NCBI GenBank assembly: GCA_965243135.1
Contig: OZ251539.1
Location: 1,024,001-1,088,000, forward strand
Origin: Alphaproteobacteria bacterium
GTDB taxonomy: Bacteria; Pseudomonadota; Alphaproteobacteria; MPNO01; UBA830
Length of the DNA: 64,000 nt
Direction: 5' to 3'
Shown here: piece after piece, positions 1 through 16,003 of the stretch
Position numbering within the stretch: position 1 is the first letter of the stretch
Layout: every line of letters starts with the position of its first letter
Translations under genes and position numbers: made by a program
The notes under the pieces: generated by a model
The model's database searches: none
What the model was told of the DNA's origin: nothing
What the model saw: the letters and a program-made list of their open reading frames with translations, nothing else

Positions 1-1016
1 GCAATGCGGTTGTTGGACAGCATCGTATGGTAATTGTGGACGACCGCCCGCGGCGCGGCCGAGGTGCCGGAGGTGAAGCACAGGATCGCGGGATCGGCCG
101 CGACCGGCGGGTCGGCGACCGCCGATGCGGATCCGCCGTCGATCAGCGCCTGCAAGGAGACGGCGCCCGGCGGCGGCGCGCCGGTCGCGACGACGACGTG
201 TTCGAGCGTTTCCACGCGCTCGCGAAGCGACGTCATCGTCGCGGGCGCGTCATAGGATTCCGTGGCGCCGCCGCACAGAACCGCGCGCGCGTTCGCGTGG
301 CGCAGGAGCGGTTCCATTTCTCCCGCCCGGTACGGCATGTGCATGGTCGAAACCACGGCGCCGATCATCGTGGCGGCGAAATAGAAAAGCGCGAATTCCG
401 GCGTGTTCGGAAGCTGGACCGCGACGACGTCGCCCTTTCGTATGCCGAGGTCGAGAAGCGCGTTCGCAAGACGGCGGGAGCGGTCGATGACGTCCGACCA
501 GGAGAGGCTTCGGTCCGCGTGACGGAGCGCTTCGGCGTCGGGCGTCTCCTCCGCGCGCGCCTCCAGCCAGGAACTGACGGTGTCGGCCGTCCAGCTTCCG
601 TCGCGCAGGTAACGCGCCGACAGCTTCGGATCGAAAGACAGCGCGTTCCGCAGCGCCATCGCTTCGTCGCTGAAGGCGAAGCGTTCCTCGTGCGGGACGA
701 AGCGCTCGGCGCGGAAACGGCGTCCGCCGCCGAGTTCGTACAAGCGGTGATAATGATGCCGCCGGTACCGGCGGTGTTCGGTCATGACGCGGATGAAGGT
801 GACCTGATCGCGCGTCAGGCCGAGCTTGCGGGCGATTTCCGGATCCGACAGTCCGGTTCCTTCGCGCTGCCGCTCGATCTCGTCCCAGTCCAGTTCCCGA
901 ACCGGATCGCCGCGCCGAACCTGGTAGTTGTGGCTGAGTTCGAAGACGATGTCGCCCCACGCGCGGAGCATCGCTTCCGTCACGCCGGTCTGACGCCGGT
1001 CGAGGCCTCTGGTCAT
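1..1016 (-). CDS. AMP-dependent acyl-CoA synthetase/ligase with ~120-aa N-terminal extension (3' end outside window)
   Basis: Absent from the ORF track because it has no stop in the window. Manual translation from ATG 1016 gives MTRGLDRRQ...LANALLDLGIRKGDVVAVQLPNTPEF...LCFTSGTSAAPRAVVH (AMP-binding loop). ATGA overlap with the upstream gene's stop. Confidence 0.85.
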   Translation of the reverse strand, partial: MTRGLDRRQTGVTEAMLRAWGDIVFELSHNYQVRRGDPVRELDWDEIERQREGTGLSDPEIARKLGLTRDQVTFIRVMTEHRRYRRHHYHRLYELGGGRRFRAERFVPHEERFAFSDEAMALRNALSFDPKLSARYLRDGSWTADTVSSWLEARAEETPDAEALRHADRSLSWSDVIDRSRRLANALLDLGIRKGDVVAVQLPNTPEFALFYFAATMIGAVVSTMHMPYRAGEMEPLLRHANARAVLCGGATESYDAPATMTSLRERVETLEHVVVATGAPPPGAVSLQALIDGGSASAVADPPVAADPAILCFTSGTSAAPRAVVHNYHTMLSNNRI

Positions 1017-1906
1017 TCCTGGGTTCGCGCCTCGCGCCGCCGTATGGGATCGGCCAGCGGCGCCCTGGTCGCGATCGGGCAGACGCGCATGCATTCGAAG
1101 CACTGGGCCAGCAGCCCGCCGGAGCCGACCGACATCTTGTACCAGAGGATCTTGTTGTCGGGGCCGTACATCAGGTCTTCCCGTTCCGCTTCGTCGTCGG
1201 CGCGGAGCATCTCGGAAAAGACGTCCGGCACGGCCTCGTATTGCTGGGTCATGTCGGCGCAGGCGGCCATGTCGTATCGCATTTCGCGTTGCCGGCCCTC
1301 TTCGTCGATGTCGCCGGACAGGCACTGGACCGGGCAGAACTTCATGCACGGGGTCTGGCCGACCTTGCGGAACAGCTCCACGCAGGAAGGCGCGGGGCAG
1401 GGATTCTCCTCCATCGGCCGGTCCGGCGGAAGCTCGAGTTCCGTGAAGACCGAGGCGAAGTACATGTAGCCGAACTCCGGATGCAGGAGGATGTCGCCGG
1501 CCAGCGACCGGGCGCCGATGCCGGCGACCTCGGCGTGCAGCTTGAGGCTCTGGAACGGCGTGCGGGGACCGGCCTCCGGGTCCATGTCGGGCGGACAGTA
1601 GATGGCGCGCTTTCCGTAGGCGTTCTCGATGAAGAACGCGCAGCCATAGGCCACCGTGTAGGCGCGGGTTTCCGTCGACCCGAAATACCCCAGCGCCTTC
1701 GCCGGAACGCTCCACGCGCCCTGGGTCTGCCCGCCGACGCCGAGCGCGATGATCGACCGCGCTCGCGGCCACAGGTCGCTGGGCCGGTGGCCTTCCGGCG
1801 CAATGCGTTCGACGACGTCGATATCCGCGACTCCAGCGGCCAGCGCTCCCTTTCGCAGGCAATAGGCGAGAATTTCTTCCTTAGCCCGTTCCGACACCAC
1901 CGTCAT
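1013..1906 (-). CDS. QueG/reductive-dehalogenase-like 4Fe-4S protein (probably cobalamin-binding)
   Basis: SLKLHAEVAGIG..ILLHPEFG..FASVFTELELPPD segment; Cys motifs CPAPSC..CMKFCP and CFECMRVCP; start placed at MTVVSERAKEE. Confidence 0.7.
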   Translation of the reverse strand: MTVVSERAKEEILAYCLRKGALAAGVADIDVVERIAPEGHRPSDLWPRARSIIALGVGGQTQGAWSVPAKALGYFGSTETRAYTVAYGCAFFIENAYGKRAIYCPPDMDPEAGPRTPFQSLKLHAEVAGIGARSLAGDILLHPEFGYMYFASVFTELELPPDRPMEENPCPAPSCVELFRKVGQTPCMKFCPVQCLSGDIDEEGRQREMRYDMAACADMTQQYEAVPDVFSEMLRADDEAEREDLMYGPDNKILWYKMSVGSGGLLAQCFECMRVCPIATRAPLADPIRRREARTQE

Positions 1907-2109
1907 GGTCCGCCATCCTTTCCATGCGTCCGCCGCTTTCTGTGTAACGCAAGCGCGCCGAACGGGCAATTTTCGGTTGCGGGCGGCGTTCGCCCGAAAG
2001 CCGCGGTCGCGGCAAGTTCGGAAGACCGCTTCGGCGGGGAAGGCCGCATGTTCGCTCCCGGCCGCTTCGGTCGCTCCGAACGACCGGCGCGGCGTCGGCC
2101 TTCGATCTC

Positions 2110-2300
2110 GAACGCGCCGGGCGCCAAGCCGGCGATTACGGTCGCGTCGTCCGCATCGACCTGAAAAAGCGGGACAGGCGAATCTTCGCGCCGACCCCGT
2201 GGGGGCAGTTCCTTATCGTGGCTGCAACCACCGCTCCGCCACGGGACCGCGGTCGCGTCGCTTGCCGCACGGAGAGACGCTACGTTCGCTGCATGAAACG
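2110..2300 (+). pseudogene. Short transposase-like remnant
   Basis: Fragment AGRQAGDYGRVVRIDLKKRDRRIFAPTPWG resembles, from memory, the C-terminal part of IS1182/IS5-type transposases; no intact ORF. Confidence 0.3.
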
Positions 2301-2575
2301 CCTGCGGCTCTGCCTGACCGCGGAGACGGCGCTCGGCCGCTCGCGGCGCGAGGCGGTCGCCTTGGCGAGCTGCGCAACGAGGCGTTTGCGCTGCGCCGTT
2401 TTTCGTCGGCTGCCCGTCCGTCCTGGGGCAGTTGGCAGCGTGAATTTCCGCGCCGCTTGCAGCGCCGAAGCCGGGGGAAAGCCGGGCAACTTCCGCGCTC
2501 CGGAACTCAAGAGCGCAGCGAGCGGCAGCCGCGAGAGGGCTGGCCGGCGAACCCCGGCGCCGAAGCGGGGCGCCG

Positions 2576-3037
2576 CTATTCCACCGTCTCGGCCGTGGTC
2601 TCGGCCGGCGGCTCCTTCCGGTGTTCGACAAAAGTCTCGAGCAGGTCGAACTTGCCCTCGACGCGCGCCACGCGCTCGCTCAACTCCCGGAATTGCTCGT
2701 TCATCTGCCGGAATTGCTCGTTCATCTGATCGGTCAATTGCCGGAACCGTTTGTTGGTCTCTTCGTTCTGTTGCCGGAACCGTTCGTTCATCTGATCGGT
2801 CAGCTGCCGGAACCGTTCGTTGGTCTGATCGGTCAGCTGCCGGTATTGCTCGTTGATCTGCCCGAACAGGTCGTCCGTCCGCCGGTCCCGTTCGTCCATG
2901 CGCAGGGCGAGGCCGTCGATCCGGCGGTCCAGCCGGCGGCCCTGCTGAAGAACCAGCCTGATAACGGCAATGCCGCCGCCAAGCATGGTAGCGCCGACGC
3001 CAAGAATGGCAATGAGTTCGGAAGAGAACTGTTCCAT
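2576..3037 (-). CDS. Small membrane-anchored coiled-coil repeat protein
   Basis: N-terminal hydrophobic helix LIAILGVGATMLGGGIAVIRLV, then Q(M/T)NERFRQLTD repeats, ending ERVARVEGKFDLL. Confidence 0.75.
   Translation of the reverse strand: MEQFSSELIAILGVGATMLGGGIAVIRLVLQQGRRLDRRIDGLALRMDERDRRTDDLFGQINEQYRQLTDQTNERFRQLTDQMNERFRQQNEETNKRFRQLTDQMNEQFRQMNEQFRELSERVARVEGKFDLLETFVEHRKEPPAETTAETVE
2688..2868 (-). repeat. In-frame 33-bp/21-bp imperfect tandem repeats (11/7-aa coiled-coil units)
   Basis: Recurring (+ strand) CCGGAACCGTTCGTTCATCTGATCGGTCAGCTG-like units. Confidence 0.85.
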
Positions 3038-3937
3038 AAGGTACCCCTGCGAATTCGGTAGGACGAACGTATGCGAAACGTTCGCGCCGTGCAACATTCC
3101 TGTCGGCTGCGGTCCGGCCGCCGGCGCGAATTTCCGCGCCGGCCCCGCGCGAGAATCCCGCAGCCCGACAAACCGCTCCGTGGGCTCGGCTGAACTCGCC
3201 TTCGCGCCAAGCGCTTCGCCGCGCTCGACGCCAGCGCATGTTCGGCCAGAGCCGCCCGCGTCGCAGGACACCACGTTCAGGCAACGACCGCAGCGGCAAG
3301 AAGTCCGCTCCGGCGGTTCGCTACTTTCGAGCCGGCGGGCAGGACCCTCGAACGGGCTCGGCGCGGCCCTGCCCAAGTGACCCTCCCTCGAGCTCCCGTC
3401 ACGCTCCGGCCAGAACCTCGCTTTCGCCGCCGCGCCGACAATGTCGGAACGTGCGCGGCGTTTCTCGCCGTCCGGCGCAAAGGTTGCGAGAACGACAGGT
3501 TTCACCGCGCTCGCTCCGTTGCGCCCGTCGACCGTCAGTCGCCCTGCGAACTCCGCCCTGCCGCACGGCCGTCCCCAAAGCCCGCGCCTTTCGGCGCACG
3601 AGTTCGTCCCTTCAAATATGCCTGTTTTTCAAGATGTTACGAACAACGCGAGATTTTCGCGATAGACCGCGGCGATCGTTCGCCCGCCCTTTTCTCCCGC
3701 TGCGGCCGGGCCGTCCGGATCGAGCCGAGGGGCGCCGAGCGGAGGGCAGCAGACAAAGGTTGCGGCAGCGCAAACGCCTCTCTTGAAACTCAAGTTGCAA
3801 CTGTATACGGTCTACGGACTGTCGTTATGGGGTTTTGTTTCGCAGTCTTTTGCGTAGTTTTAACTTCGTTACGGATAATGCGAATCGGGACCTCCATCCA
3901 TTGGGGTGAGTTTTCTGGACCAAACCAAGAGGTTGTC

Positions 3938-6900
3938 ATGATGAGACTTTGTCGCACACAGTTGATCGGTAGTTCTCCCCCCCCCCCCCCCATAATCTGA
4001 AGCGAGGCTTCATCGCGCTGGGCGGGGCCGCGGCTTTTCTGCTGGCTTTTCCGGCCCCGTCCTTTGCGCAGGACTGCGGCAGCGCCGTTCGAGGCAGCTA
4101 CAATAGCGAAACCGGAGTTTTCTCCGCCGGAACGTCCGCTACGGACGTCGACTACAGGGTGCCTTGCACGGAGGACGACGGAGACTCCGTGATCACGCTG
4201 CCGACGGGTCTTTCGCTGCCGAACGCCGTTTCCGACTCGTACGTGGTGATCGAGGTCGCCGGGTCGGGAAGCGTTCGCAATTTTCAGCCCGGCGCCTGGA
4301 AATACGTCGTGAAGACTCCCGACGACTTCCGGACGGAAAACACGAACGACGCCCTCGGGCACGGCCTGTACTTCCGTAGCGGGAGCGGCGACGTGCGCGT
4401 CGAGCTGCGCGGCGCGGCGACCACCCGCGGAGCGGGCGCGACCGGCATGCGGGTGCGGGTCGACGGCAGCGGCAAGGCGACAGCGGTCAACATGGGAACG
4501 ATCGCCACCCATGGCGACACGCACACTTCCAGCGCGGTCGGCACGTTCATCCTGCCGGCCTACGGCGTCTTCGCGCAAGCGGCGCAGGGCGACGCCGAAG
4601 CGGTGAACCGCGGCGAGATCTCGACGGGCGGCGACGGAGCGAGAGGCATCTTCGCAACGGCCCGCGGGTCGGCGGTGGCGACCAATCACGGGAGGATCAC
4701 GGTTTCCGGTTCTCCGCATGTCTCCGGCTCGGAATACCGGTCTCCGCACGGCATTTTCGCTTGGGGCGGGACGGCGGAGGCCGCCAATTTCGGGACGGTC
4801 GAAACGCGGGGCGACCGGGGACGCGGCGTCTACGCGCGCGGGAGCGTCGCGACGGCGACCAATCGCGGCACGATCGTCACCCGCGGCAATCGCGCGGGCG
4901 TGGAAGGAAATTTCCTCTCGGCAATGGGAGTGGCCGCCCAATCGGGCGGCGACGCGACGGCCGTGAATGCCGAGGGCGCCGCGGTGGACACCTACGGCAC
5001 GAATGCCGACGCCCTGTTCGTCCGGTCGGGTACCGGAGACGCGAACGCCGTGAACGCGGGCGCGCTGCGCACGCACAATACGGTATCGGATCCCGCCAAC
5101 AGGCTCGCGCTCGCCGCCGAAGGCATCTACGCGCGTTCGGACAGCGGCAACGTCACGGTCGTGAACGAGGCGACGGGGTCCGTGCGGACGGCGGGCCCGC
5201 GGACATGGGGCATCCACGCGAGAACGTCCGGCGACGGCGCGGACGCTTCCGCAACGGTGACGGTGACGAACCGGGGCAGCGTGGAGACCCGGGGATGGAA
5301 CTCGGACGGCGTCGTGGCGGCAGCGTATCACGGAGGCAGCGAAGCCAACCCCAACGCCGTCAGGACGATCAACGCCGGAGCCGTCAGGACGCAGGGCGAC
5401 ATGGCCAGCGGCATTATCGCCGCCGTGGACGTCCGCGACCGCGGAACTTCTTTCGGCTCCGCGCGGGCGGAGAACGCCGGCACGATCTCGACCTCCGGCG
5501 GGCCCGGCGACGGAACGAACCCGACGGAAACCGCGTCCGGGGTGGTCGCCGCCTTTTTCAGCACGTCGGACGACGCGATCTCCGACGCCGGAGACGCGAC
5601 CGCGGTCAACAGCGGCACGGTGACCGTCGCCGGCGCGGGCGCGGCCGGACTCGTCGCCCGGACCTACGGGACCGGCGCGGCGACGGTGGAAAATTCCGAG
5701 GGCGGCACGGTGGACACTCGCGGCAAGAATGCCGACGCCATGTACGCCCGGTCGGACGCCGGAGCCGTGAACGCCGTGAACGCGGGCGCGCTTCGCACCC
5801 ACAACACGGTATCGGATCCCGCCAACAGGCTCGCGGACGCTTCCGAAGGCATCTACGCGCGTTCCGAACGCGGCAGCGTCACGGTCGTGAACGAGGCGAC
5901 GGGATCCGTGCGGACGGCGGGCCCGAGAACATGGGGCATCCATGCGAGAACGAACGGCGACGGCGCGGACGCTTCCGCAACGGTGACGGTCACGAACCGG
6001 GGCAGCGTGGAGACCCAAGGGTCGAACGCGGACGGCGTCGTGGCGGCAGCGTATCACGGCGGCAGCGAAGCCAACCCCAACGCCGTCACGACGACCAGTG
6101 CCGGACTCGTCAGGACGCAGGGCGACATGGCCAGCGGCATCATCGCCGCGGTGGACGTCCGCGACCGCGGAACCTCCTTCGGCTCCGCGCGGGCGGAGAA
6201 CGCCGGCACGATCTCGACGTCCGGCGGACCCGGCGACGGAACGGATCCGACGCAGACCGCGTCCGGAGTGGTCGCCGCCTTTTTCAGCACGTCGGACGAC
6301 GCGATCTCCGACGCCGGAGACGCGACCGCGGTCAACAGCGGCACGGTGACCGTCGCCGGCGCGGGCGCGGCCGGACTCGTCGCCCGGACCTACGGGTCCG
6401 GCGCGGCGACGGTGGAAATGAACGGCGGCGCCGTCGTCGCCTCTTCCGCGGACGACCCCGCGACGACGGCCGACGAGGGCGGCATCGGCATATGGGCCGC
6501 CACGGGCGCGTCCGGCAGGGCTTCGGTGACGGTCGGAAACGCGGCTGTCGTCCGGGCGCCGGTTGCGGCGCGGCTCGAAGGCGGCTCCACGAGGCTCGAC
6601 CTTTCTTCCGGCTGGCTCGTCGGCGACGTGCGCTTCGGGAGCGGCGACAACACCCTGAACGTCAGGCAATCAGGCGTCATCGTCGGCGACGTGGCGTTCG
6701 GGGACGGAGAGGACGCGTTGATACTCGACATCTCCTCGGCTGAGGGGATCGGCAGCGTTGCAGGATCGGTCACCGGACTTGAGAACATGATCAAGCGTGG
6801 TTCCGGCGTCGCGCGCGTGCGCGACGTGACTTTCTCCGGCTCCCGGCTTGCGGTCGAGGACGGCATGTTGTCGGTTCGCGGCCATCTCGACCTGGGCGGC

Positions 6901-8283
6901 GACGGCGCCGTCACGATCGAAAACGCCGGCAGGCTGCAGGTGGAGGTCGGCGACCTTGCCGGCAATCCCCAAGACCACGGACGGATCACGGCTGGAAACG
7001 GGGTCCACTTCGAGGAGGGCGCCGAACGGACTGTCCGGGTGGCGCATGCTCCGGATCGCTCCGCCGCGCAGAGGACCGCTTCCGAACAAGTCCTCCAGAC
7101 CGCCGGGATCGCAATCCTCGTCGACGGAACCCCTGCCGTCGATGGACGGAATGAACAGTCGATTGGGGATCTGACCTTGACGACAGAAACGCCCGAAGGG
7201 ACGGTGAACACGGTCGGCAACGTCTCTGTAGACGGTGTAGCCCAGATCAACCCGGGCGCGGAGTTGCCGACCGCCCGGAAGGAGGCCTCTCCACCCGGTG
7301 AACAGAAACCGGAAGCGGACGCGCCTGAGGCTGCCGTGCCCGCCGTGAAGCGCAAAGACCGCAGGGATCGCCGTTTCCTGATCGGGGGAGGAGGGCTGTT
7401 CGCCCTGCTGATGTTCGCTTTCGACCCGTTCCACATGGTGGAGGCGGGCGGTTCGAGCGCCGCGGTCCAGCCGGCGGACGGCCGCGAGGGCGTCGAGGCG
7501 CGCGCGTTCACCGCGGACGCACGGGTGGCGGGGGGAACGATGCGCGGCGTGACGCTGGGCGTCGCTTCGCGGCTCGGCGGCGGTCTCCATCTCGGAGTGT
7601 CGGCGACGCCCGCCCTTGCGGCGACGGCCGATTCCGGGGAGGCGCTGGAAGGGGGCCGGTTCGGGCTTCAGGGCCGCTGGCGGTCGGGCATCCTGGATAT
7701 GGGGGCCAGCCTGTCTCACGGAACCTACGACGCCCGGTCGAAGTCCGCCAACCTCGAAGGGCTGGACAACCCGGAAGGCGTGTACGGACTGCGCCACGGC
7801 CATGCGCAGATGCGCCTGGGCGCCCGCGTCGCCGCCGCCGGAATCGACGTCGCCCCCTCGCTGTCGCTGTTCGGCGGCCGCCTGGAGCAGACGGCGCACA
7901 CGGCGCGGTCCGCGGCTCTGCGCGCCGAAGTGCCGGCGCTGACCCGGCGCTACGGCGGCTGGAAGGCGCGGCTCGACCTCGGGCCGCAGGACTGGCTGCA
8001 GGCCGGCCCTGTCCGGTGGCGCCCGCGGCTGGGCCTCGCCGCGGCGCGGATCTCCACCGACGCTCCGGACGGGCTCCGGGTGCGCCAGTCCGACGCCGCC
8101 GGCGCGTTGAGCTTCACGACGCCGGCGCAGGCGGAAGCGCTGCCGCGGAGGATGCACGCGCTCGCCCTGTCGGCGTTCGCCCGCGGCGAAACCTGGAAAC
8201 TGGATGGCGGCTACGTGGCGGCGATGGTGGCGGACGGCGAGCCGGTCCATGCAGTTGCGGCGCGGCTGCGCATCGACTTCTGA
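3938..8283 (+). CDS. Autotransporter-like adhesin, frameshifted at the C15 tract (in-frame part 3991-8283)
   Basis: Signal-like KRGFIALGGAAAFLLAFPAPSFA|QD lies in frame upstream of GTG 4159; G/A/T/N-rich xNxGxIxTxG beta-helix passenger; C-terminal amphipathic beta strands ending RLRIDF. Confidence 0.8.
3977..3991 (+). repeat. C15 homopolymer, putative slipped-strand phase-variation tract
   Basis: 15 consecutive C starting 13 codons after ATG 3938 (AAGAGG RBS at 3927-3932); C13 or C16 would join this ATG in frame to the adhesin ORF. Confidence 0.8.
4984..6417 (+). repeat. Tandem duplication with 726-bp (242-aa) period inside the passenger domain
   Basis: 4984-5691 is repeated at 5710-6417 with a constant 726-bp offset (e.g. 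HNTVSDPANRLA and GVVAAFFSTSDDAISDAGDATAVN occur twice). Confidence 0.95.
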
Positions 8284-8289
8284 CCGTCT

Positions 8290-8325
8290 CCGCCCGCCTC
8301 CTTTCCCCCGCAGGGAGGCGGGCGG
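8290..8325 (+). terminator. GC-rich stem-loop after the adhesin
   Basis: CCGCCCGCCTCC (8290-8301) pairs perfectly with GGAGGCGGGCGG (8314-8325); no U-tract follows. Confidence 0.5.
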
Positions 8326-9283
8326 CGCGCCGAAAAAGCTGAAGGCGGTCGCCCCAAGCCTCCCGGATTCGCCCTCCTGCTCCGGCATGACGATGTCTCA
8401 AGGCGTACGGAATCTTGGGAACCGGAACGATAATATTGCCGCGAACCATGGCCTGGACGATTTGCGCCCCTGCAACGGGTCACGCGTTCTGCGGAGCGAC
8501 GCCTCGGTTTTCGCGTCGCGGATCGACCTGCAGGTTGCTGACGGCGCGAACGGCCCGGCTGGCTGCCGGGTTTTGCGCAAGGTAGGCGCGATCCGGGAGC
8601 CTTTCGTCGGAGGCGGCGCGGACGCAACGCCTTGGGACGGCGGTCGCGCAGCGGCTTCGCGGAAGCCGGTCGTTGCGCCGACGGCATCAAATTTTCCCGT
8701 TCTTCCTCGGTCGTTGCGCTCGTACCACGCTCGTAGCATCATGGCGGACGGGCGAACGGGAGAAAACCGGGGAATGGCTTGGGAGAACGGCGGGACTTGA
8801 CGCGGGCAGGAATTTCGTGCGAAATGCCAAGGTCATTTCAAGTTTAAAGAGAAACATGCCGAAATTGGTAGTGGAATACCTGTTTGCGTCGAGACGTTGC
8901 GAAGCGGTCAGATGGTACGGATGGTAAGGTCATTATGGGGAGTTCACGGTGTCTAGGGGTTCACCGGCTGCGAAGTTTGCCAAGCAGATCCGAAAGGCCG
9001 TGGCCATCCTCTGCCCAATGATGATCGGTCGTGACTGGCTGGCAGCGCTGATCGTACAATCCCAGAAACCCACCAGCTGAAGGTGGCGCCCGTGGCACGA
9101 TTTTGGAAGATGTTCTCCGACCCGAACTGGAAGAAGAGCTGATGTGGAGTGCAGAAGCGAGGGCATCGACGCGAAGCGTGACGTCCGCGTTTCGCGGTTC
9201 GGAACGGGATAACGCGATGCCGCCAGCCAAAAAGCACCAGAAATGAATACTTTCCTTCCGATTTGATTATGGGATGATGATTT

Positions 9284-10765
9284 ATGGGCCAGAATTTTCC
9301 CCCTGATTTATCTTCGCAATTTAATGATCCTTTAATCACGTTTTCCGACGCCAAATCATTGGAACAAAAGACTCTTGCGATTAAAGGGTTAATGAAAGGA
9401 GGAGCGATTCATGCTGCGCATAAGGATTTGCGTTTTTCGAAAGGATTGAACGAAACAATCAATCGTTTAAATTCCACAAAAGACGCTAAGGAAATACTAT
9501 TGTCTCTTGCTATATTGTCTCGTGTTGCGAATCGAATCAAACCCTATAAGGAGGGGTTAAAACCGCAAATCAATGCTATTTTGCGAAATGCACCGCCACC
9601 TTTATCGATCCTAGATGAAGCGGAGGACAGAGCATATGTCGCACAATCTTTAAGATATTGGGCAACAGGCGATTGGATAGTTTCTTATGTAGCGCTCTGT
9701 ATAGTAAATGAGGAGACAGGTGAAAAAGTAAGATCCGAACTTATTCGTACTTTATTTTGCGAATCTCAGGATCTTACGATTGCATTTAAGGAAATTCAAC
9801 GACAGCTCGTATCTTGGGAACCGAAAACTGAATCACCGGGGGACAGCGTTGCGAGACGACTAAAGCGGATTTTCAGTAGTATGCGCCGGGAAATATTAAG
9901 TATTGAAAAGCCTTCTGGTAGTGAAATTGGTACGGCTATTAACAGCATAATTGTTGATTCTTTTCGCAAAACCGATCCTCCTAGGGATCGAAAGGTTGCG
10001 ATTGATTTTGTGGCAGAAACAGCTTTTCTCATTCATGATGTTATTCGAACTAATTTTTCCATAGCATCAATTAGCTCCACATATTTGCCATTAACGACAC
10101 TATCTCGTTGGTTTGCGCCGATCTCGTGGCCTCAAGCTACCCGCTCAGCTCTTCAGAAGTTATCGCAAGATATACAAGAAGCTATTTTGATGAAAGCTAG
10201 GCAAGGTCTTCCGGACGACGAATTGCTAAAATTTTTAACTTTGATTGAAGGATCACGGACGGTGGCTCTGCGGCTCACCTCTCAAATTGCTGATCGCACA
10301 CCCAGTCTCAATAAAGAAATGACGCAGTGGTTACGTCGCGGAAGAGTTACAAAGAATGTTGATAGCACAGAAATAGTGGCGGAAAACAGTTTCCTTGCAT
10401 CCGACACTGCTTTAGCGTTCTTATTGTTGGATAGTTTTCGGTTGGTTGAATTACTTGAGGCCGATAGCCAAGATATACTCACCGAAATGCGTATTTTCAA
10501 TCCTGAGCTAGAAGAGATGGTCAAAAAGATACTTGAGCTTTCTGGTGCGCTTACGAAAGGGGTCGAAGCATTAGCGAAAAGAAGATCCTTATTTTGTCGA
10601 GGAGAAATTGGCAATATAGTAGATTATTCGTCGTTGGAGCAAGAGCCTGTCTCTGGTTCCGTTGTGGGCGCTACCAAGGTGCGTGTTATACGACCGCTTG
10701 TCGAACGTATCCGGAGCGATCAAGTTCCCGAAATTGTGGTCAAAGCAATAGTCAATCGTGCTTGA
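9284..10765 (+). CDS. Hypothetical all-alpha protein with GrpE-like C-terminal domain
   Basis: 493-aa AT-rich ORF; C-terminus GEIGNIVDYSSLEQEPVSGSVVGATKVRVIRPLVER..EIVVKAIV resembles the GrpE beta-domain pattern and follows long helices. Confidence 0.6.
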   Translation: MGQNFPPDLSSQFNDPLITFSDAKSLEQKTLAIKGLMKGGAIHAAHKDLRFSKGLNETINRLNSTKDAKEILLSLAILSRVANRIKPYKEGLKPQINAILRNAPPPLSILDEAEDRAYVAQSLRYWATGDWIVSYVALCIVNEETGEKVRSELIRTLFCESQDLTIAFKEIQRQLVSWEPKTESPGDSVARRLKRIFSSMRREILSIEKPSGSEIGTAINSIIVDSFRKTDPPRDRKVAIDFVAETAFLIHDVIRTNFSIASISSTYLPLTTLSRWFAPISWPQATRSALQKLSQDIQEAILMKARQGLPDDELLKFLTLIEGSRTVALRLTSQIADRTPSLNKEMTQWLRRGRVTKNVDSTEIVAENSFLASDTALAFLLLDSFRLVELLEADSQDILTEMRIFNPELEEMVKKILELSGALTKGVEALAKRRSLFCRGEIGNIVDYSSLEQEPVSGSVVGATKVRVIRPLVERIRSDQVPEIVVKAIVNRA

Positions 10766-10816
10766 CGAGTTGGAATCCCCCTTGAATCAGCAAATTAGCT
10801 TGCAAAGGAAGAGAGC

Positions 10817-12496
10817 ATGAACACAAACAACGCCAAGATAATTCTTGAAAATCTCTTGGAGCGGATTGAAAATAATCCCCAAACAGGGAGAAAGACTCTT
10901 CCTGGGATAATTTCTGATCGTGAGTATGCAGCGATTGATTTTGCCATCAATGTGCTAAGGAAAACTAGTCCTGATGAGAATTATGAAGAACACCCTATAT
11001 CGACAATAAGCGAGACCTCAACCGGTTCAACGGCCCAGCTGGAGCTACGATGCCTCGATTATATTAAGCCGGAAGACCCCAATGTTATACTCTGTATAGA
11101 TTTTGGAACCGCGATGTCAAAGGCTGTCGTGACCAAGGACGCCGATGACGAGATATTGCCTTTGCCGTTGGGGCGAAAATCTGGCGAGCCTGTTTTAGTT
11201 TTTCCTATGTCTTCCACGTTGTTTATTTCACGCACGGGTCGAATATATTTCGGATATTCGGCGATTAGAGAAAGCTTGGCGGAGGAATCAAAAGGAGGTC
11301 TATCACGCAAAGAAAGCCGATCACGCTTTGACTCTTCGAAACAACGTTTAAGTCAGGGGATGTTGGCTGATCCTTCCAGACGAAATGTTGATGAAACAAT
11401 AAATCCCACCGAGTATACCTTTACTGAGGGTGATTTGATTTTGCTAATCTTATCTTTCTTAACCGATCTTGCCTGCACAGAACTCGAAGAGAAGGGCATA
11501 TCACGATATGTTCGGAGGCGTTTTGCCATGCCATTTTGGAGCGGAGATAGAGCGGAGTGGGCGAAGTCTTATATGACAAAGCTGTTAGCAAAGGCGCAGA
11601 TAGTTGCTGATACATTTTCTGGCCAGTGGGCAAATGGTTTAGAAGCGGAAAGAGTACAACGAATATTGAACGATGTCAATAATTGCGAAAAATTTCCTGA
11701 ATACTTAATTGATAATCCGGTTTTTGAGGCAGCAGCTGCAGCAAGTAGTAGTTTTCCATATGGATCGGGAAAACGGGAATTGTATATGATAATGGATGTT
11801 GGTGCTGGAACGGTTGATTACGGATTATATGCCGTTGTCACTCCTAAGAATGACACGAAGAAGCCGAAAATATTTCAAGCTAAAGGAACCATGTTGGCAT
11901 TAAGAAAAGGGGGAGATACTATAGACGGGATTTTGAGGCTATTTATTTTGGAGAGAGAAAGAATTAACGAGAAGGATGCGGATTTTGACTATATCGACCG
12001 TGATCTGAAATTGAGGATTCGGACTCTGAAAGAAAATCTATTTCAACAAGGAGCAGTTACCTATAATCTTTCTAATGATTCCGTTGGGGAGGTTGTTCTA
12101 GAAGATTTTTTGGCGGACCGAAGAATGACTGAATTGGAACGAGTTTTTCGAGAAAGTTTCGAGAAATCTTTGATGAATGCTGAACCTTCATGGATAACAA
12201 AATTATCTCAATCTAGGCTTACGGTTGTTTTGACGGGTGGTGGTGCGCGATTGCCAATACTGACAGGTTTGAGTACCTCATCCTTTAAAGTTCACGGTGT
12301 AAATCTGCAATGTAAAGGCACAGCAGTTGTACCGGAGTGGTTTACTGAAAAATATAGCGAATGGGAGACCGAATTTCCTCAGTTGGCTGTTGCTATAGGA
12401 GGGGCGGAGGAGGATCCGCCTGATATATGCAGAGAATATGGAGAAATCGGAATATCAGATACAAAAATTGTTGGGCTTAAGCCTGAGTATAAATAG
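10817..12496 (+). CDS. Hsp70/actin-fold ATPase without recognisable substrate-binding domain
   Basis: Phosphate-1 LCIDFGTAMS, connect EAAAAA, phosphate-2 IMDVGAGTVD, GGDTID, adenosine motif VVLTGGGARLP; AT-rich. Confidence 0.85.
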   Translation: MNTNNAKIILENLLERIENNPQTGRKTLPGIISDREYAAIDFAINVLRKTSPDENYEEHPISTISETSTGSTAQLELRCLDYIKPEDPNVILCIDFGTAMSKAVVTKDADDEILPLPLGRKSGEPVLVFPMSSTLFISRTGRIYFGYSAIRESLAEESKGGLSRKESRSRFDSSKQRLSQGMLADPSRRNVDETINPTEYTFTEGDLILLILSFLTDLACTELEEKGISRYVRRRFAMPFWSGDRAEWAKSYMTKLLAKAQIVADTFSGQWANGLEAERVQRILNDVNNCEKFPEYLIDNPVFEAAAAASSSFPYGSGKRELYMIMDVGAGTVDYGLYAVVTPKNDTKKPKIFQAKGTMLALRKGGDTIDGILRLFILERERINEKDADFDYIDRDLKLRIRTLKENLFQQGAVTYNLSNDSVGEVVLEDFLADRRMTELERVFRESFEKSLMNAEPSWITKLSQSRLTVVLTGGGARLPILTGLSTSSFKVHGVNLQCKGTAVVPEWFTEKYSEWETEFPQLAVAIGGAEEDPPDICREYGEIGISDTKIVGLKPEYK

Positions 12497-12612
12497 AGCC
12501 GAGTATCATCTATTTCTCTAATTTTCATTGGGTGGGTATCAAGCAGAAGGACGGTAGGCTACAATGCCCCCTGGGGCGACGGATTTGCGGGTGCGGCTTG
12601 GAGAAGGGGCAA

Positions 12613-13605
12613 ATGCAGAACGACATTCATCTCACCATGGCGACATGGGATTACGACCATATCCGCGACATCGCGTCGGGCGCAGTCAAGCCGAAGGGCA
12701 TCAGGATCACCCACCTGGAGATGGAGGTCGAGGAGATCTTCTACCGCTTCGCAAAATCCTTCGAATGGGACGTTTCGGAGCTTTCCTTCGCGAAGTACTG
12801 CTCGATCCTGTCCCAAGACGCCCCGCCGATCACCGGCATACCCGTCTTCGTCAGCCGCGTCTTCCGCCATTCGGCGTTCTACGTCTGGAGGGGGAGCGGC
12901 GTCGAGAAACCCGAAGATCTGCGCGGCGGCCGGGTCGGGATACCGGAGTGGTCGCAGACGGCGACGGTTTACGCGCGCGGCTGGCTGCATCACCAGGCTG
13001 GCGTGAAGCTTGACGAGGTGGAGTGGGTGCAGGCGGGAGTCGACGCTCCCGGGCGGCTCGAGATGGCGACGCTCAAGCTGCCGGAAGGCGTCAAGTATAC
13101 GCAGGTTCCCGACCGGTCGCTGTCCGAAATGCTTGGCGACGGGACGATCGATTGCATGATATCGGCGCATGCGCCGCAGGCGTTCGAGACGGGAGAGATC
13201 GTGCGTCTGATTCCCGATTATCGAGACGCCGAGGAACGGTATTTCGAAGAGACCGGCATCTTTCCGATCATGCACACGATCGCCATCCGGCGAGATGCGT
13301 ACGAGAATCATCCCTGGATTGCGCGCAACCTGATGACGGCGTTCGAAGAGGCGCGCGACCGCAGCGTTGCGCGAATCACCAGCGTCACTGCGTCGCAGAT
13401 CCCCGTGCCCTGGGGCTACGAGAACGCCGGGCGCATCGGGCGGAAGGTGTTCGGCGACGGCGGGTTGTGGCCCTACGGGATCGAAGCCAACCGGACCACG
13501 ATCGAAGCGTTTCTCCAATACTGCCACGAACAGGGCGTTTGCCATCGCAGACTCGCTCCGGAAGATCTCTACGCTCCGGAAGCTCTGACGGAGTACGTGA
13601 TATGA
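12613..13605 (+). CDS. 4,5-dihydroxyphthalate decarboxylase family (solute-binding-protein-like fold)
   Basis: DYDHIRDIASGAVKPKGI, WDVSELSFAKY, PVFVSRVFRHS, GIPEWSQTA, FPIMHTIAIRR, WPYGIEANR motifs. Confidence 0.85.
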   Translation: MQNDIHLTMATWDYDHIRDIASGAVKPKGIRITHLEMEVEEIFYRFAKSFEWDVSELSFAKYCSILSQDAPPITGIPVFVSRVFRHSAFYVWRGSGVEKPEDLRGGRVGIPEWSQTATVYARGWLHHQAGVKLDEVEWVQAGVDAPGRLEMATLKLPEGVKYTQVPDRSLSEMLGDGTIDCMISAHAPQAFETGEIVRLIPDYRDAEERYFEETGIFPIMHTIAIRRDAYENHPWIARNLMTAFEEARDRSVARITSVTASQIPVPWGYENAGRIGRKVFGDGGLWPYGIEANRTTIEAFLQYCHEQGVCHRRLAPEDLYAPEALTEYVI

Positions 13606-13638
13606 AGTTCGTGACGCAGGCGAAACGGAGGTCGAGCA

Positions 13639-14175
13639 ATGCTTGGAAGAATCGGAGCGGCGCTGTTCGCCGCATTGGCGATGGGAGCGGCCCAGGCGGC
13701 CGACAAGAATGACATGCTGTATCTCGAAACGCAGCACGGCAAGGTCGTAATCGAAATGCGCCCGGATCTCGCGCCGCGCCATGTCGAGCGCATCCGGGAA
13801 CTCGTCAGGCAGAAGTTCTACGACGGATTGAAGTTTCACCGGGTGATCGACGGATTCATGGCCCAGACGGGAGATCCGAGGGGAGACGGAACGGGCGGTT
13901 CGGGGCAGAAGCTGCCTCCCGAATTCTCCTCCGAAAAGCATGTGCGCGGCGTCGTGTCGATGGCGCGGGCCGCCGATCCGGCGAGCGCGGACAGCCAGTT
14001 CTTTATCGTGCTTGCGGATGCCCCGTGGCTGGATGGACAGTACACGATCTGGGGCATGGTTACGGAAGGCATGGAGCATGTCGACCGGATCAAGAAAGGA
14101 GACAGGCAGCGCAACGGCGTGGTTCGCGATCCCGACAGCATCGTGACCTTGCGCGTGGCGGCCGATGTCGAATAG
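13639..14175 (+). CDS. Cyclophilin-type peptidyl-prolyl isomerase with signal peptide
   Basis: FYDGLKFHRVIDGFMAQTGDP, SMARA..SADSQFFI, LDGQYT. Confidence 0.95.
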   Translation: MLGRIGAALFAALAMGAAQAADKNDMLYLETQHGKVVIEMRPDLAPRHVERIRELVRQKFYDGLKFHRVIDGFMAQTGDPRGDGTGGSGQKLPPEFSSEKHVRGVVSMARAADPASADSQFFIVLADAPWLDGQYTIWGMVTEGMEHVDRIKKGDRQRNGVVRDPDSIVTLRVAADVE

Positions 14176-14734
14176 AGGGATTATTCGGAACGTTTGAATG
14201 AAGCGCGGGCTCGCTCCGCCCTGTCATCCCCCTATCAACTTCGATCCCGTTGGAACGCCTGAAGCGGCCGTTTGCCGGCTGACGCTCTTTCGTCCCGGCA
14301 TACCCGGCGCGAAAGGCCGTGCTCCGGCCGTTCGGCCGGATGTCATACGCCATCGAGAGGCCGCGGCGGCCATGGCCGGGCACGGCGCATGCACCCGGAG
14401 TGGTGTTGCAAGCCATTGCTCTATCCCGCGCTGCGTTTCCAATACGACCATGTTGGTTCCTTCGGGGAGACGTAAGCGTTCGGTCGTGGGGTGACGTTGT
14501 TGAGGTCCCTCCTCCAGTTCCGCTGCAGGGGCTTCAGCGTCCTTGACCGGGAGAGCGCGTTCTTTCCCCGGGTGCTGCCGCGGCCCTTGAGCAACTCAAG
14601 GGCGGCTTCTACGCTGCGCGACGGCGACGATTCGAACCGCGTCCGCCGACCGGACGGAGCCATGCTGAACTTACCGGCTTGGCTATGCAGTGGCACGGTC
14701 CCAAGAGATAGCTTGCTCGTAGGTAAGCAAACTT

Positions 14735-15343
14735 CTACTTCGGTCGTTCGAACGCTGCGCGCGCGCGTTCGGCGGCGGCGCGGGCGAAACATCCTTCCAA
14801 GTGACCGTTGACCATGCCCATGGCCTGCATGAACGCGTAAGCAATCGTCGGGCCGACGAACGACCAGCCGCGCTTCTTGAGTTCCTTCGACAGCGCCGTC
14901 GATTCGGAGGTTTTCGCGGGCAGGGGGCGCTGCGGCGGATGGGCGTGAGGTTCCCATTTCCAGAAGAAGGCGCCGAGCGAGCCGCATTCTTCGGCGAGAT
15001 CGCAGGCGCAGCGTGCATTGTTGATCGCGGATTCGATCTTTCCGCGATGACGCACGATGCCGGCGTCGGCCATCAGGCGTTCGATGTCGCGCGGGCCGAA
15101 GCCCGCAATCCTCGCGAAGTCGAAATCCGCGAAGGCGGTCCGGAAATTCTCGCGTTTTCGCAGGATCGTCAGCCACAAGAGGCCGGACTGGAAACCCGAG
15201 AGGCAAATTTCTTCGAACAGGCGCGCGTCGTCGGCGACGGGTACGCCCCAATCTTCGTCATGGTAAGCCCGAAGGTCTGCATGACCTTCGGCCCATCGGC
15301 ATCGCAACCTGCCATCGTCTCCACTGATCGGCCCATGAGGCAT
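14735..15343 (-). CDS. tag: DNA-3-methyladenine glycosylase I, divergent downstream copy
   Basis: RCRW..YHDEDWGVP, GIVRHRGKI, FVGPT..AFMQAMGMVNGH..C; has ICLSGFQSGLLW instead of ICLEGFQSGLSW. Confidence 0.85.
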   Translation of the reverse strand: MPHGPISGDDGRLRCRWAEGHADLRAYHDEDWGVPVADDARLFEEICLSGFQSGLLWLTILRKRENFRTAFADFDFARIAGFGPRDIERLMADAGIVRHRGKIESAINNARCACDLAEECGSLGAFFWKWEPHAHPPQRPLPAKTSESTALSKELKKRGWSFVGPTIAYAFMQAMGMVNGHLEGCFARAAAERARAAFERPK

Positions 15344-15394
15344 CGTCGTTCCATCGTCTGGGGCCCTGTGGCCCGGCGGGTCGCGGGCCGAAGA

Positions 15395-16003
15395 CTACCT
15401 CGGTCGTTCGAACGCGGCGCGCGCGCGTTCGACGGCGGCGCGGGCGAAACATCCTTCCAGGTGATCGTTGACCATGCCCATGGCCTGCATGAATGCGTAA
15501 GCGGTCGTCGGGCCGACGAACGACCAGCCGCGCTTCTTGAGTTCCTTCGACAGCGCTGTCGATTCGGGGGTTTTCGCGGGCAGGGGGCGTTGCGGCGGAT
15601 GGGCGGGAGGTTCCCATTTCCAGAAGAAGGCGCCGAGCGAGCCGCATTCTTCGGCGAGGTCGCAGGCGCGGCGTGCGTTGTTGATCGTGGATTCGATCTT
15701 TCCGCGATGACGCACGATGCCGGCGTCGGCCATCAGGCGTTCGATGTCTCGCGAACCGAAGCCCGCAATCCTCGCGAAGTCGAAATCCGCGAAAGCGGCC
15801 CGGAAATTATCGCGTTTCCGCAGGATCGTCAGCCACGAGAGGCCCGACTGAAATCCTTCGAGGCAGATTTTTTCGAACAGGCGGCGGTCATCGGCAACCG
15901 GTACGCCCCACTCTTCGTCATGGTAGGCCCGATAGTCGGCATGACCCTCGGGCCACTGGCATCGCAACTTGCCATCGTCTCCACTGATCACGCCGTGAGA
16001 CAT
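15395..16003 (-). CDS. tag: DNA-3-methyladenine glycosylase I, canonical copy
   Basis: YHDEEWGVP, FEKICLEGFQSGLSWLTIL, NDHLEGC motifs intact. Confidence 0.95.
   Translation of the reverse strand: MSHGVISGDDGKLRCQWPEGHADYRAYHDEEWGVPVADDRRLFEKICLEGFQSGLSWLTILRKRDNFRAAFADFDFARIAGFGSRDIERLMADAGIVRHRGKIESTINNARRACDLAEECGSLGAFFWKWEPPAHPPQRPLPAKTPESTALSKELKKRGWSFVGPTTAYAFMQAMGMVNDHLEGCFARAAVERARAAFERPR

Follow-up and report, generated by a model that had tools for sequence, protein, structure and literature searches.

A two-gene cassette in an AT-rich islet

We analysed a 64,000-nucleotide stretch of the genome of an alphaproteobacterium of the lineage UBA830 (contig OZ251539.1, positions 1,024,001 to 1,088,000; hereafter the window) and here describe two adjacent open reading frames (ORFs), ORF1 and ORF2, that almost certainly form a member of PDC-M61, a two-gene family catalogued in PADLOC (Table 1). 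ORF1 matched the PADLOC model PDC-M61A (PDLC04728) with an E-value of 5e-84, its residues 12-492 aligning to model positions 8-488 of 489, and ORF2 matched PDC-M61B (PDLC04731) at 7.9e-135, with residues 68-532 on positions 102-558 of 588. The adjacency that the family definition specifies was also found, as the two genes are neighbours on the plus strand. An earlier annotation made from the letters alone (the sequence-only reading) had described two co-oriented ORFs 51 bp apart and far more AT-rich than their host, and both coordinates and composition bear this out: 22 of the 60 positions in 9301-9360 are G or C, and the G+C content of 9284-12496 is 42.5% compared with 63.9% for the whole window.

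The boundaries of this islet are visible in 100-bp windows. At the left edge, G+C falls from 0.56-0.62 (8900-9199) to 0.38-0.45 (9200-9499), and it rises again from 12500; it is 70.9% in a 1374-residue ORF upstream of the pair (4159-8283) and 62.7% downstream (12532-16000). Both ORFs are intact, and a ribosome-binding stretch of the AGGAAGAG type lies about 7 nt 5' of the ORF2 start codon. Predicted promoters and terminators at the locus were no more numerous than expected from shuffled sequence. ORF2 has 171 relatives in a word-index search and ORF1 has 487 representatives at E <= 1e-3 in a library of 1.84 billion proteins; because of these relatives and the PADLOC E-values, we regard the two as genuine genes rather than chance ORFs.

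Table 1 Features of the PDC-M61 locus (window coordinates).
Feature	Position	Strand	Basis
ORF1 (PDC-M61A), 493 residues; alpha-solenoid, GrpE-like stalk and beta domain	9284..10765	+	PADLOC match; AlphaFold2 model
HEAT/ARM-like alpha-solenoid, A residues 1-352; presumed sensor or scaffold	9284..10339	+	AlphaFold2 model
GrpE-like stalk, A residues 355-433, two long helices	10346..10582	+	AlphaFold2 model; part of the structural match with GrpEL1 and with E. coli GrpE
Small beta domain resembling that of GrpE, A residues 434-493	10583..10762	+	AlphaFold2 strands; hhalign
Intergenic spacer, 51 bp, with Shine-Dalgarno-like AGGAAGAG	10766..10816	+	Read from sequence
ORF2 (PDC-M61B), 559 residues; ATPase resembling Hsp70, nucleotide-binding domain only	10817..12496	+	PADLOC; family profile against PDB; Foldseek
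Conserved N-terminal extension, B residues 1-50; helix/beta-hairpin/helix	10817..10966	+	AlphaFold2 model
Hsp70-type nucleotide-binding domain, B residues 87-530	11075..12406	+	Invariant motifs; Hsc70 alignment; AlphaFold2 model
AT-rich islet with ORF1 and ORF2	9230..12530		G+C in 100-bp windows
Strain-specific insert, about 10.7 kb, containing the islet	1890..12600		Flank spacing in three same-genus genomes

The PDC set comprises 145 phage-defence candidates nominated by "guilt-by-embedding", according to the main text of a 2024 preprint by Payne, Hughes, Fineran and Jackson (bioRxiv 10.1101/2024.01.29.577857). That main text, as distinct from the supplements, does not contain the terms Hsp70, chaperone, DnaK, actin or 'PDC-M', and a literature search, the same supplements aside, found neither a domain description nor a test of the PDC-M61 pair. 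The pair is thus catalogued, yet uncharacterised, and the label 'undescribed' given to it in the sequence-only reading no longer holds. General family databases place neither protein. No Pfam family exceeded its threshold for ORF1 or ORF2, with no GrpE (PF01025) match for ORF1 and no family of any kind for ORF2 at E <= 1; ORF2 also fell below the Hsp70 (PF00012) family threshold, and its best NCBIfam match, HscA, scored 18 bits (E = 7.8e-4) against a cut-off of 708. The locus is therefore a further member of a catalogued family that is Hsp70-like and GrpE-like while belonging to neither sequence family. It does not differ in kind from PDC-M61 as defined in PADLOC; the copy in the window is a solo, non-embedded one.

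ORF2 is an Hsp70-type nucleotide-binding domain without a substrate-binding domain

Three motifs had first suggested an actin/Hsp70-type ATPase, and all are present as described: DFGT at residue 95, DVGAGT at 327 and LTGGG at 472, with the chain ending 83 residues past the last of them (about 80 had been estimated). As a lone sequence, ORF2 had no match among PDB sequences. A family profile built from 57 PDC-M61B sequences matched nucleotide-binding domain (NBD) chains of Hsp70, Hsc70 and BiP at E-values of 1.3e-10 and below. In the corresponding alignment, which covers Hsc70 residues 176-362, E304 of ORF2 falls on the glutamate of the Hsc70 NEPTAAA motif, D327-VGAGT-x-D on DLGGGTFD, and LTGGG-x-x-LP on LVGGSTRIP. 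An AlphaFold2 model of ORF2 (pLDDT, the predicted local distance difference test, 86.5) agreed with this assignment: the best 49 Foldseek matches listed (E = 7e-16 to 2e-14) were all Hsp70-family proteins (Hsp70, BiP, DnaK, Ssb and RAC), mostly NBDs, with target-normalised template-modelling scores of 0.43-0.79 overall and 0.64-0.79 for NBD-only chains. A reading of ORF2 as an actin-, MreB- or ParM-like filament protein was rejected, as its NCBIfam matches to FtsA and MamK were weak and far below threshold (E = 0.09-0.15) and those same 49 structural matches were all Hsp70-family.

The residues that are invariant in all 57 PDC-M61B sequences are D95-F-G-T-A-x-S-K102, K175, E304, D327-x-G-A-G-T-x-D334 and G474-G475. 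These are the phosphate-1, catalytic Lys/Glu, phosphate-2 and adenosine sites of Hsp70, an assignment based on the Hsc70 profile alignment in the C-terminal half of the protein and on motif likeness and general knowledge in the N-terminal half. No substrate-binding domain (SBD) or lid is predicted. The last NBD helix (residues 514-529) stops at 529 of 559, and the final 30 residues form a tail modelled with low confidence, with pLDDT below 50 at 549-555. Family profile, predicted structure and Foldseek thus uphold the proposal that ORF2 is an Hsp70-type NBD with intact catalytic motifs and no SBD, and B is likely to be an active Hsp70-type ATPase. The N-terminal extension, which is predicted to form a helix (3-15), strands (about 17-27) and a second helix (34-50) at pLDDT 79-90, is as conserved within the family as the NBD (mean top-residue frequency 0.55 vs 0.57).

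ORF1 joins an alpha-solenoid to a GrpE-like tail

ORF1 was modelled at pLDDT 95, with helices up to residue 352, two long helices (361-405 and 407-433) and seven short strands (436-492). Within the PDC-M61A family, conservation is highest in the beta domain (mean top-residue frequency 0.52) and lowest in the stalk (0.34). The best 50 matches of whole-ORF1 structure searches (Foldseek and a second look) were all HEAT/ARM solenoids; these filled the list, so that GrpE could not have appeared in it. HspBP1, Fes1 and Sil1 are armadillo-repeat exchange factors of Hsp70, that is, alpha-solenoids that act on the Hsp70 NBD. None of the three was among the 50 best matches of any ORF1 structure search, and the likeness of A to them is generic.

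The likeness to GrpE resides in the tail. Structural alignments of the ORF1 tail with GrpEL1 and E. coli GrpE include the stalk, albeit at high root-mean-square deviation (rmsd). For profile-profile comparison we used 19 GrpE sequences from 30 genomes of the phylum, after dropping 11 of the 30 loci (8 wrong-strand frames, 2 frames of at least 300 residues and 1 fragment of 126 residues). Aligned with these by hhalign, the A family gave one match (P = 0.0092), which places ORF1 residues 416-481 on GrpE 131-209 and is in register with the GrpE signature: G-x-VEYSPxEHE of A falls on G-xPFDPxLHQA of GrpE, and VRIVRPxVE on RLLRPAMV. With A trimmed to residues 355-493, P was 0.0069 and the score 21.9 over 65 columns, compared with 12.0 for a reversed control and 7.8-17.6 for 29 of 30 column-shuffled controls; the remaining shuffle scored 131 over 8 columns, which we take to be a gap artefact. 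In the ESM Atlas, GrpE clusters ranked second (0.84) and sixth (0.81; PF01025 on 89% of members) for residues 355-493, scores that, being below 0.9, count as a lead only. The genome's housekeeping GrpE is encoded elsewhere, as the only PF01025 locus lies at 4.73 Mb, outside the window.

Against this stands the possibility that the C-terminal domain of A is merely GrpE-shaped, a generic long helix with a small beta sheet, in which case A would be a non-exchanging scaffold and B would be regulated otherwise, for example through its N-terminal extension. The absence of any Pfam match to GrpE, HMM (hidden Markov model) searches of PDB sequences with ORF1 profiles that returned chance-level matches and no GrpE, the hhalign probability of 4-6% and the high rmsd all speak for it. 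ORF1 itself also reads DYSSLEQE where its family has EYSPxEHE, so that S450 and Q453 replace the P and H shared by the family and GrpE. Yet structure, controlled profile-profile alignment and language-model features are three independent methods that point to one family and one register; the A residues aligned with the conserved G, F, P, H and R-P of GrpE are those conserved within the A family; and A is partnered by a protein of the only kind on which GrpE is known to act, an Hsp70-type NBD. We therefore consider a mere resemblance in shape unlikely, and a true GrpE-like fold in the tail, outside the Pfam GrpE family, likely on the predicted structure and the alignments. The overall architecture proposed for ORF1 by the sequence-only reading (about 350 residues of helices, then a helical stalk and a C-terminus resembling the GrpE beta domain) is supported by the model, structural alignment, hhalign and ESM Atlas; its specific link to GrpE fared less evenly, being suggested by the in-register alignment and not by Pfam or PDB sequences.

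A and B are inherited as a unit

To assess the linkage of the two genes, we examined related loci in genomes, viral contigs and metagenomes. In 49 of 52 informative loci (8 of 9 from genomes, 3 of 3 from viral contigs with a strong B and 38 of 40 from metagenomes), A is the gene immediately upstream of B and has the same orientation. Of the 55 metagenome loci returned, we counted the 40 in which B matched at E < 1e-30 and the sequence extended 1500 nt or more upstream; the other 7 of the 10 viral-contig loci held weak Hsp70-like matches without A. The gap between A and B in related loci ranges from -35 to +74 nt. Across 37 full-length pairs, the pairwise identity matrices of A and B are correlated at r = 0.954, a value reached in none of 999 Mantel permutations, and A is the more divergent protein in 647 of 666 comparisons.

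From this strict linkage and co-divergence we conclude, on sequence grounds, that the pair is inherited as a unit. Co-occurrence of the two homologues had been anticipated. The accompanying suggestion of a minimal or truncated module is not supported, as the two-gene form is itself the conserved unit; a conserved third gene was looked for in the neighbourhoods of related loci and none was found, the neighbours varying from locus to locus.

Some B-like genes depart from this arrangement. The three exceptions, at L009:6147-7514 (455 residues) among the genome loci and at L076:6749-8569 and L097:3921-5321 among the metagenome loci, have no detectable A upstream; their neighbours are housekeeping or regulatory genes (thioesterase, histidine kinase and GyrB), and they may represent a separate, solo NBD-only branch. 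Locus L007 has two B-like genes (349-1680 and 4841-6484), one on either side of a DrmD-type SNF2 helicase, and a PLD/ZacB-like gene comes next. The earlier of the two (443 residues) follows a fragment of A at the contig edge, and the later one resembles B only remotely (PADLOC E = 1.8e-7).

Relatives are embedded in several kinds of defence system

Many relatives of the pair sit within or beside known defence operons. In five loci the company is Hma: at L001, L002 and L069 the pair lies between the HmaB methylase and the HmaC ATPase, and at L062 and L067 it follows HmaB. A BrxU-like HEC-05 gene separates HmaB from the pair at three of these loci (L002, L067 and L069), and L062 has an HEC-08 gene upstream of HmaB. 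In L070, PglX and PglZ of a type 1 BREX system enclose the pair. Restriction-modification (RM) genes are also frequent neighbours, with the pair directly after HsdR-M-S of a type I system in L072, beside type I genes in L061 and L008, and beside type III genes in L004 and L101. A DrmD helicase accompanies the pair in L007, and three relatives are on contigs classed as viral.

One association extends to the protein itself. In L101, an HKD-Snf2 helicase and then a separate DUF4391 gene (4846-5538) lie upstream of the pair, the latter directly upstream of A, and type III RM genes follow. In L006, DUF4391 and PDC-M61A occupy a single frame of 720 residues (5836-7998) behind an HKD-Snf2 helicase, a fusion that could possibly be a physical link between A and the HKD-Snf2/type III RM system. 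From the genes that keep it company, we judge a role against phages or mobile elements probable for the PDC-M61 cassette.

The window copy is probably foreign to its lineage, and the genome holds a second pair

The islet forms the last third of a larger insertion. Homologues of window positions 797-1885 and 12600-14171 are only 411, 819 and 1038 bp apart in three same-genus genomes (L054, L055 and L056), and the window therefore carries a strain-specific insert of about 10.7 kb. None of 20 relatives matched the island (9284-12500), and of the 401 genomes sampled across the phylum, this is the sole one with relatives of B at E <= 1e-25, of which it has two. Given the low G+C content of the pair and its absence from these 20 relatives and the 400 other sampled genomes, it is, as far as composition and distribution can tell, foreign to this lineage and horizontally acquired, in agreement with the sequence-only reading. 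The window contains no tRNA gene, the ORFs scanned in it had no integrase or transposase match, and no convincing direct or inverted repeats surround the islet.

The remainder of the insert holds ORFs at 1905-4000 without a PADLOC match at E <= 1e-5 and the repeat-rich ORF of 1374 residues, which has no Pfam or PADLOC match and whose last 1.3 kb is 99% identical to G000:C1:4043558-4044887. To the right of the pair are an NMT1-like gene, a weak match that at E = 8.6e-4 misses the family cut-off, and genes for a cyclophilin and for Tag glycosylase. The last are two tandem minus-strand genes for DNA-3-methyladenine glycosylase I (Tag) of 202 residues each (14735-15343 and 15395-16003); each of the five relatives used for comparison has one segment to which the two copies both align, which suggests a single copy there. 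Scans of the flanking ORFs found no J-domain or recognisable effector beside the pair, as had been stated from sequence, and no McrBC-like match.

The second PDC-M61 pair of this genome is at G000:C1 ~4674698-4678671 (L052:7699-9189 and 9963-11672, plus strand). Its products, A' (496 residues) and B' (569 residues), are 26% and 30% identical to those of the window pair. It too is AT-rich, with G+C of 0.43-0.55 vs 0.65-0.69, and the roughly 770 bp between A' and B' hold two small ORFs on the minus strand for which neither Pfam nor PADLOC gave a match. About 3.3 kb from this pair, L052:14994-16286 encodes a protein with Schlafen AlbA_2 and HATPase_c_4 domains and weak PADLOC pAgo-associated matches.

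Comparison with known Hsp70 systems

A structural reference for the pair is DnaK-GrpE (PDB 1DKG and 9BLS). B shares the Hsp70 NBD fold and catalytic motifs, and the last ~140 residues of A appear to have a helix and beta-domain build like that of GrpE, with a weak, in-register likeness to the GrpE signature. There are also differences: B lacks the SBD and carries an extra N-terminal element of 50 residues, A carries a 350-residue solenoid that GrpE does not have, no J-protein is encoded nearby, and both proteins score under the Pfam thresholds for Hsp70 and GrpE.

In the defence literature, CnuD of the type III CoCoNuT McrBC systems is described as an Hsp70-like NBD/SBD protein with HEAT-like repeats (eLife 2024, PMC11090510), and thus likewise joins an Hsp70-like ATPase to HEAT-like repeats in a defence context. 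By that account, CnuD retains an SBD, its ATPase motifs are degenerate, it is linked to McrB/McrC-like genes, and no GrpE-like part is reported for it; PDC-M61, compared by description only, has intact motifs, no SBD, and its repeats on the partner protein. DnaK-like domains fused to protease-effector modules are a further parallel, with other domain make-up and context.

A possible Hsp70/GrpE-derived switch

Taken together, we read the locus as a solo, horizontally acquired PDC-M61 cassette that encodes an Hsp70/GrpE-derived two-protein switch or remodeller, probably directed against phages or other mobile elements, and we put the probability of this reading at roughly 60%. It is probable, with somewhat less assurance than the GrpE-like fold itself, that A binds and regulates B. 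The GrpE-like tail of A would dock on the NBD of B as GrpE does on DnaK, probably through a stalk-mediated dimer, and would set the ADP/ATP state of B. The solenoid of A would stand in, in trans, for the missing SBD and provide the surface at which a trigger or client, for instance a protein of a phage, is recognised, and the A-B complex would act as a private, ATP-driven switch or remodeller aimed at a protein of the invader.

Several observations weigh against this reading, in addition to the points raised above against the GrpE match. The cassette has no recognisable nuclease, pore, NADase or other effector domain, so immunity would need sequestration or remodelling of the target, or host factors. 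Its status is that of a candidate only, one among the 145 of its set, and the one paper in the searched literature that mentions PDC-M61 by name reports a negative statistical correlation with prophage number in Pseudomonas aeruginosa isolates. The window copy stands alone, with no PADLOC match at E <= 1e-5 in any of the 5 upstream ORFs scanned (1905-8280); the second pair lies among metabolic genes with no defence gene adjoining; and 12 of 21 long metagenome loci have no PADLOC neighbour at E <= 1e-40. B-like genes without A upstream exist at L009, L076 and L097. Embedding in Hma, BREX or RM operons is seen in many relatives and not at the window copy. As a whole, the sequence-only reading is partly supported: its structural part holds, and its notions of an undescribed and a minimal or truncated system do not.

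That the cassette defends against phage we consider possible, at slightly under even odds. Its most specific form is a speculative proposal that we think unlikely to be right in full: PDC-M61 would be a self-contained immune switch built on the Hsp70 cycle, in which a private GrpE-type factor, fused to a fast-evolving solenoid sensor, restrains an SBD-less Hsp70 ATPase until a phage protein binds the solenoid, upon which the ATPase remodels or traps that protein. If this were true, it would be the first defence system with the DnaK/GrpE nucleotide cycle as its signalling logic and no classical effector.

Embedding could also be read differently. Rather than being autonomous, the pair might serve as an accessory to, or a guard of, restriction systems that rely on methylation (Hma, BREX, type I or III RM, or DISARM-like systems) and assemble, regulate or monitor its host system, in the way that PrrC keeps watch over the type I RM system hosting it. 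On this view the two copies in the present genome would be orphans, largely or wholly without function. The positions inside Hma (L001, L002, L069, L062 and L067), between PglX and PglZ (L070) and directly after HsdR-M-S (L072) fit such a role, as does the fusion of A to, or its place directly after, DUF4391 of an HKD-Snf2/type III RM cluster (L006 and L101). However, at least five kinds of host system are involved, the pattern normally seen when an embedded system is independent, according to the main text of Payne et al. (2024, bioRxiv 10.1101/2024.01.29.577857), neither copy in this genome nor the 12 metagenome loci mentioned above have such a neighbour, and both window ORFs are intact and keep the invariant catalytic residues, all of which makes a guard role improbable. 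We likewise find a role outside defence improbable, for example as a dedicated factor for folding or assembling a protein of a mobile element or as a selfish pair of cargo genes. The missing effector, the solo copies among metabolic genes, the three relatives on viral-classed contigs and the great rarity of the cassette (1 of 401 genomes, the one described here) would allow it; its repeated embedding inside defence operons speaks against it, as does, suggestively only, a divergence of A that outpaces that of B, as often seen for the sensors of conflict systems.

The present copy alone adds little, as the PDC-M61 family is already catalogued. What is new here is the controlled evidence for the GrpE-likeness of A, the near-strict linkage of A and B and their strong co-divergence, the list of systems that host embedded relatives, with the DUF4391-A fusion among them, and the presence of two divergent solo copies in one genome. 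These additions together make the pair a well-defined target for phage-challenge and nucleotide-exchange work. If PDC-M61 does defend against phage, the Hsp70/GrpE nucleotide cycle would have been recruited outside folding as a two-protein switch, and the family would also provide a defence module in which no killing domain can be recognised.

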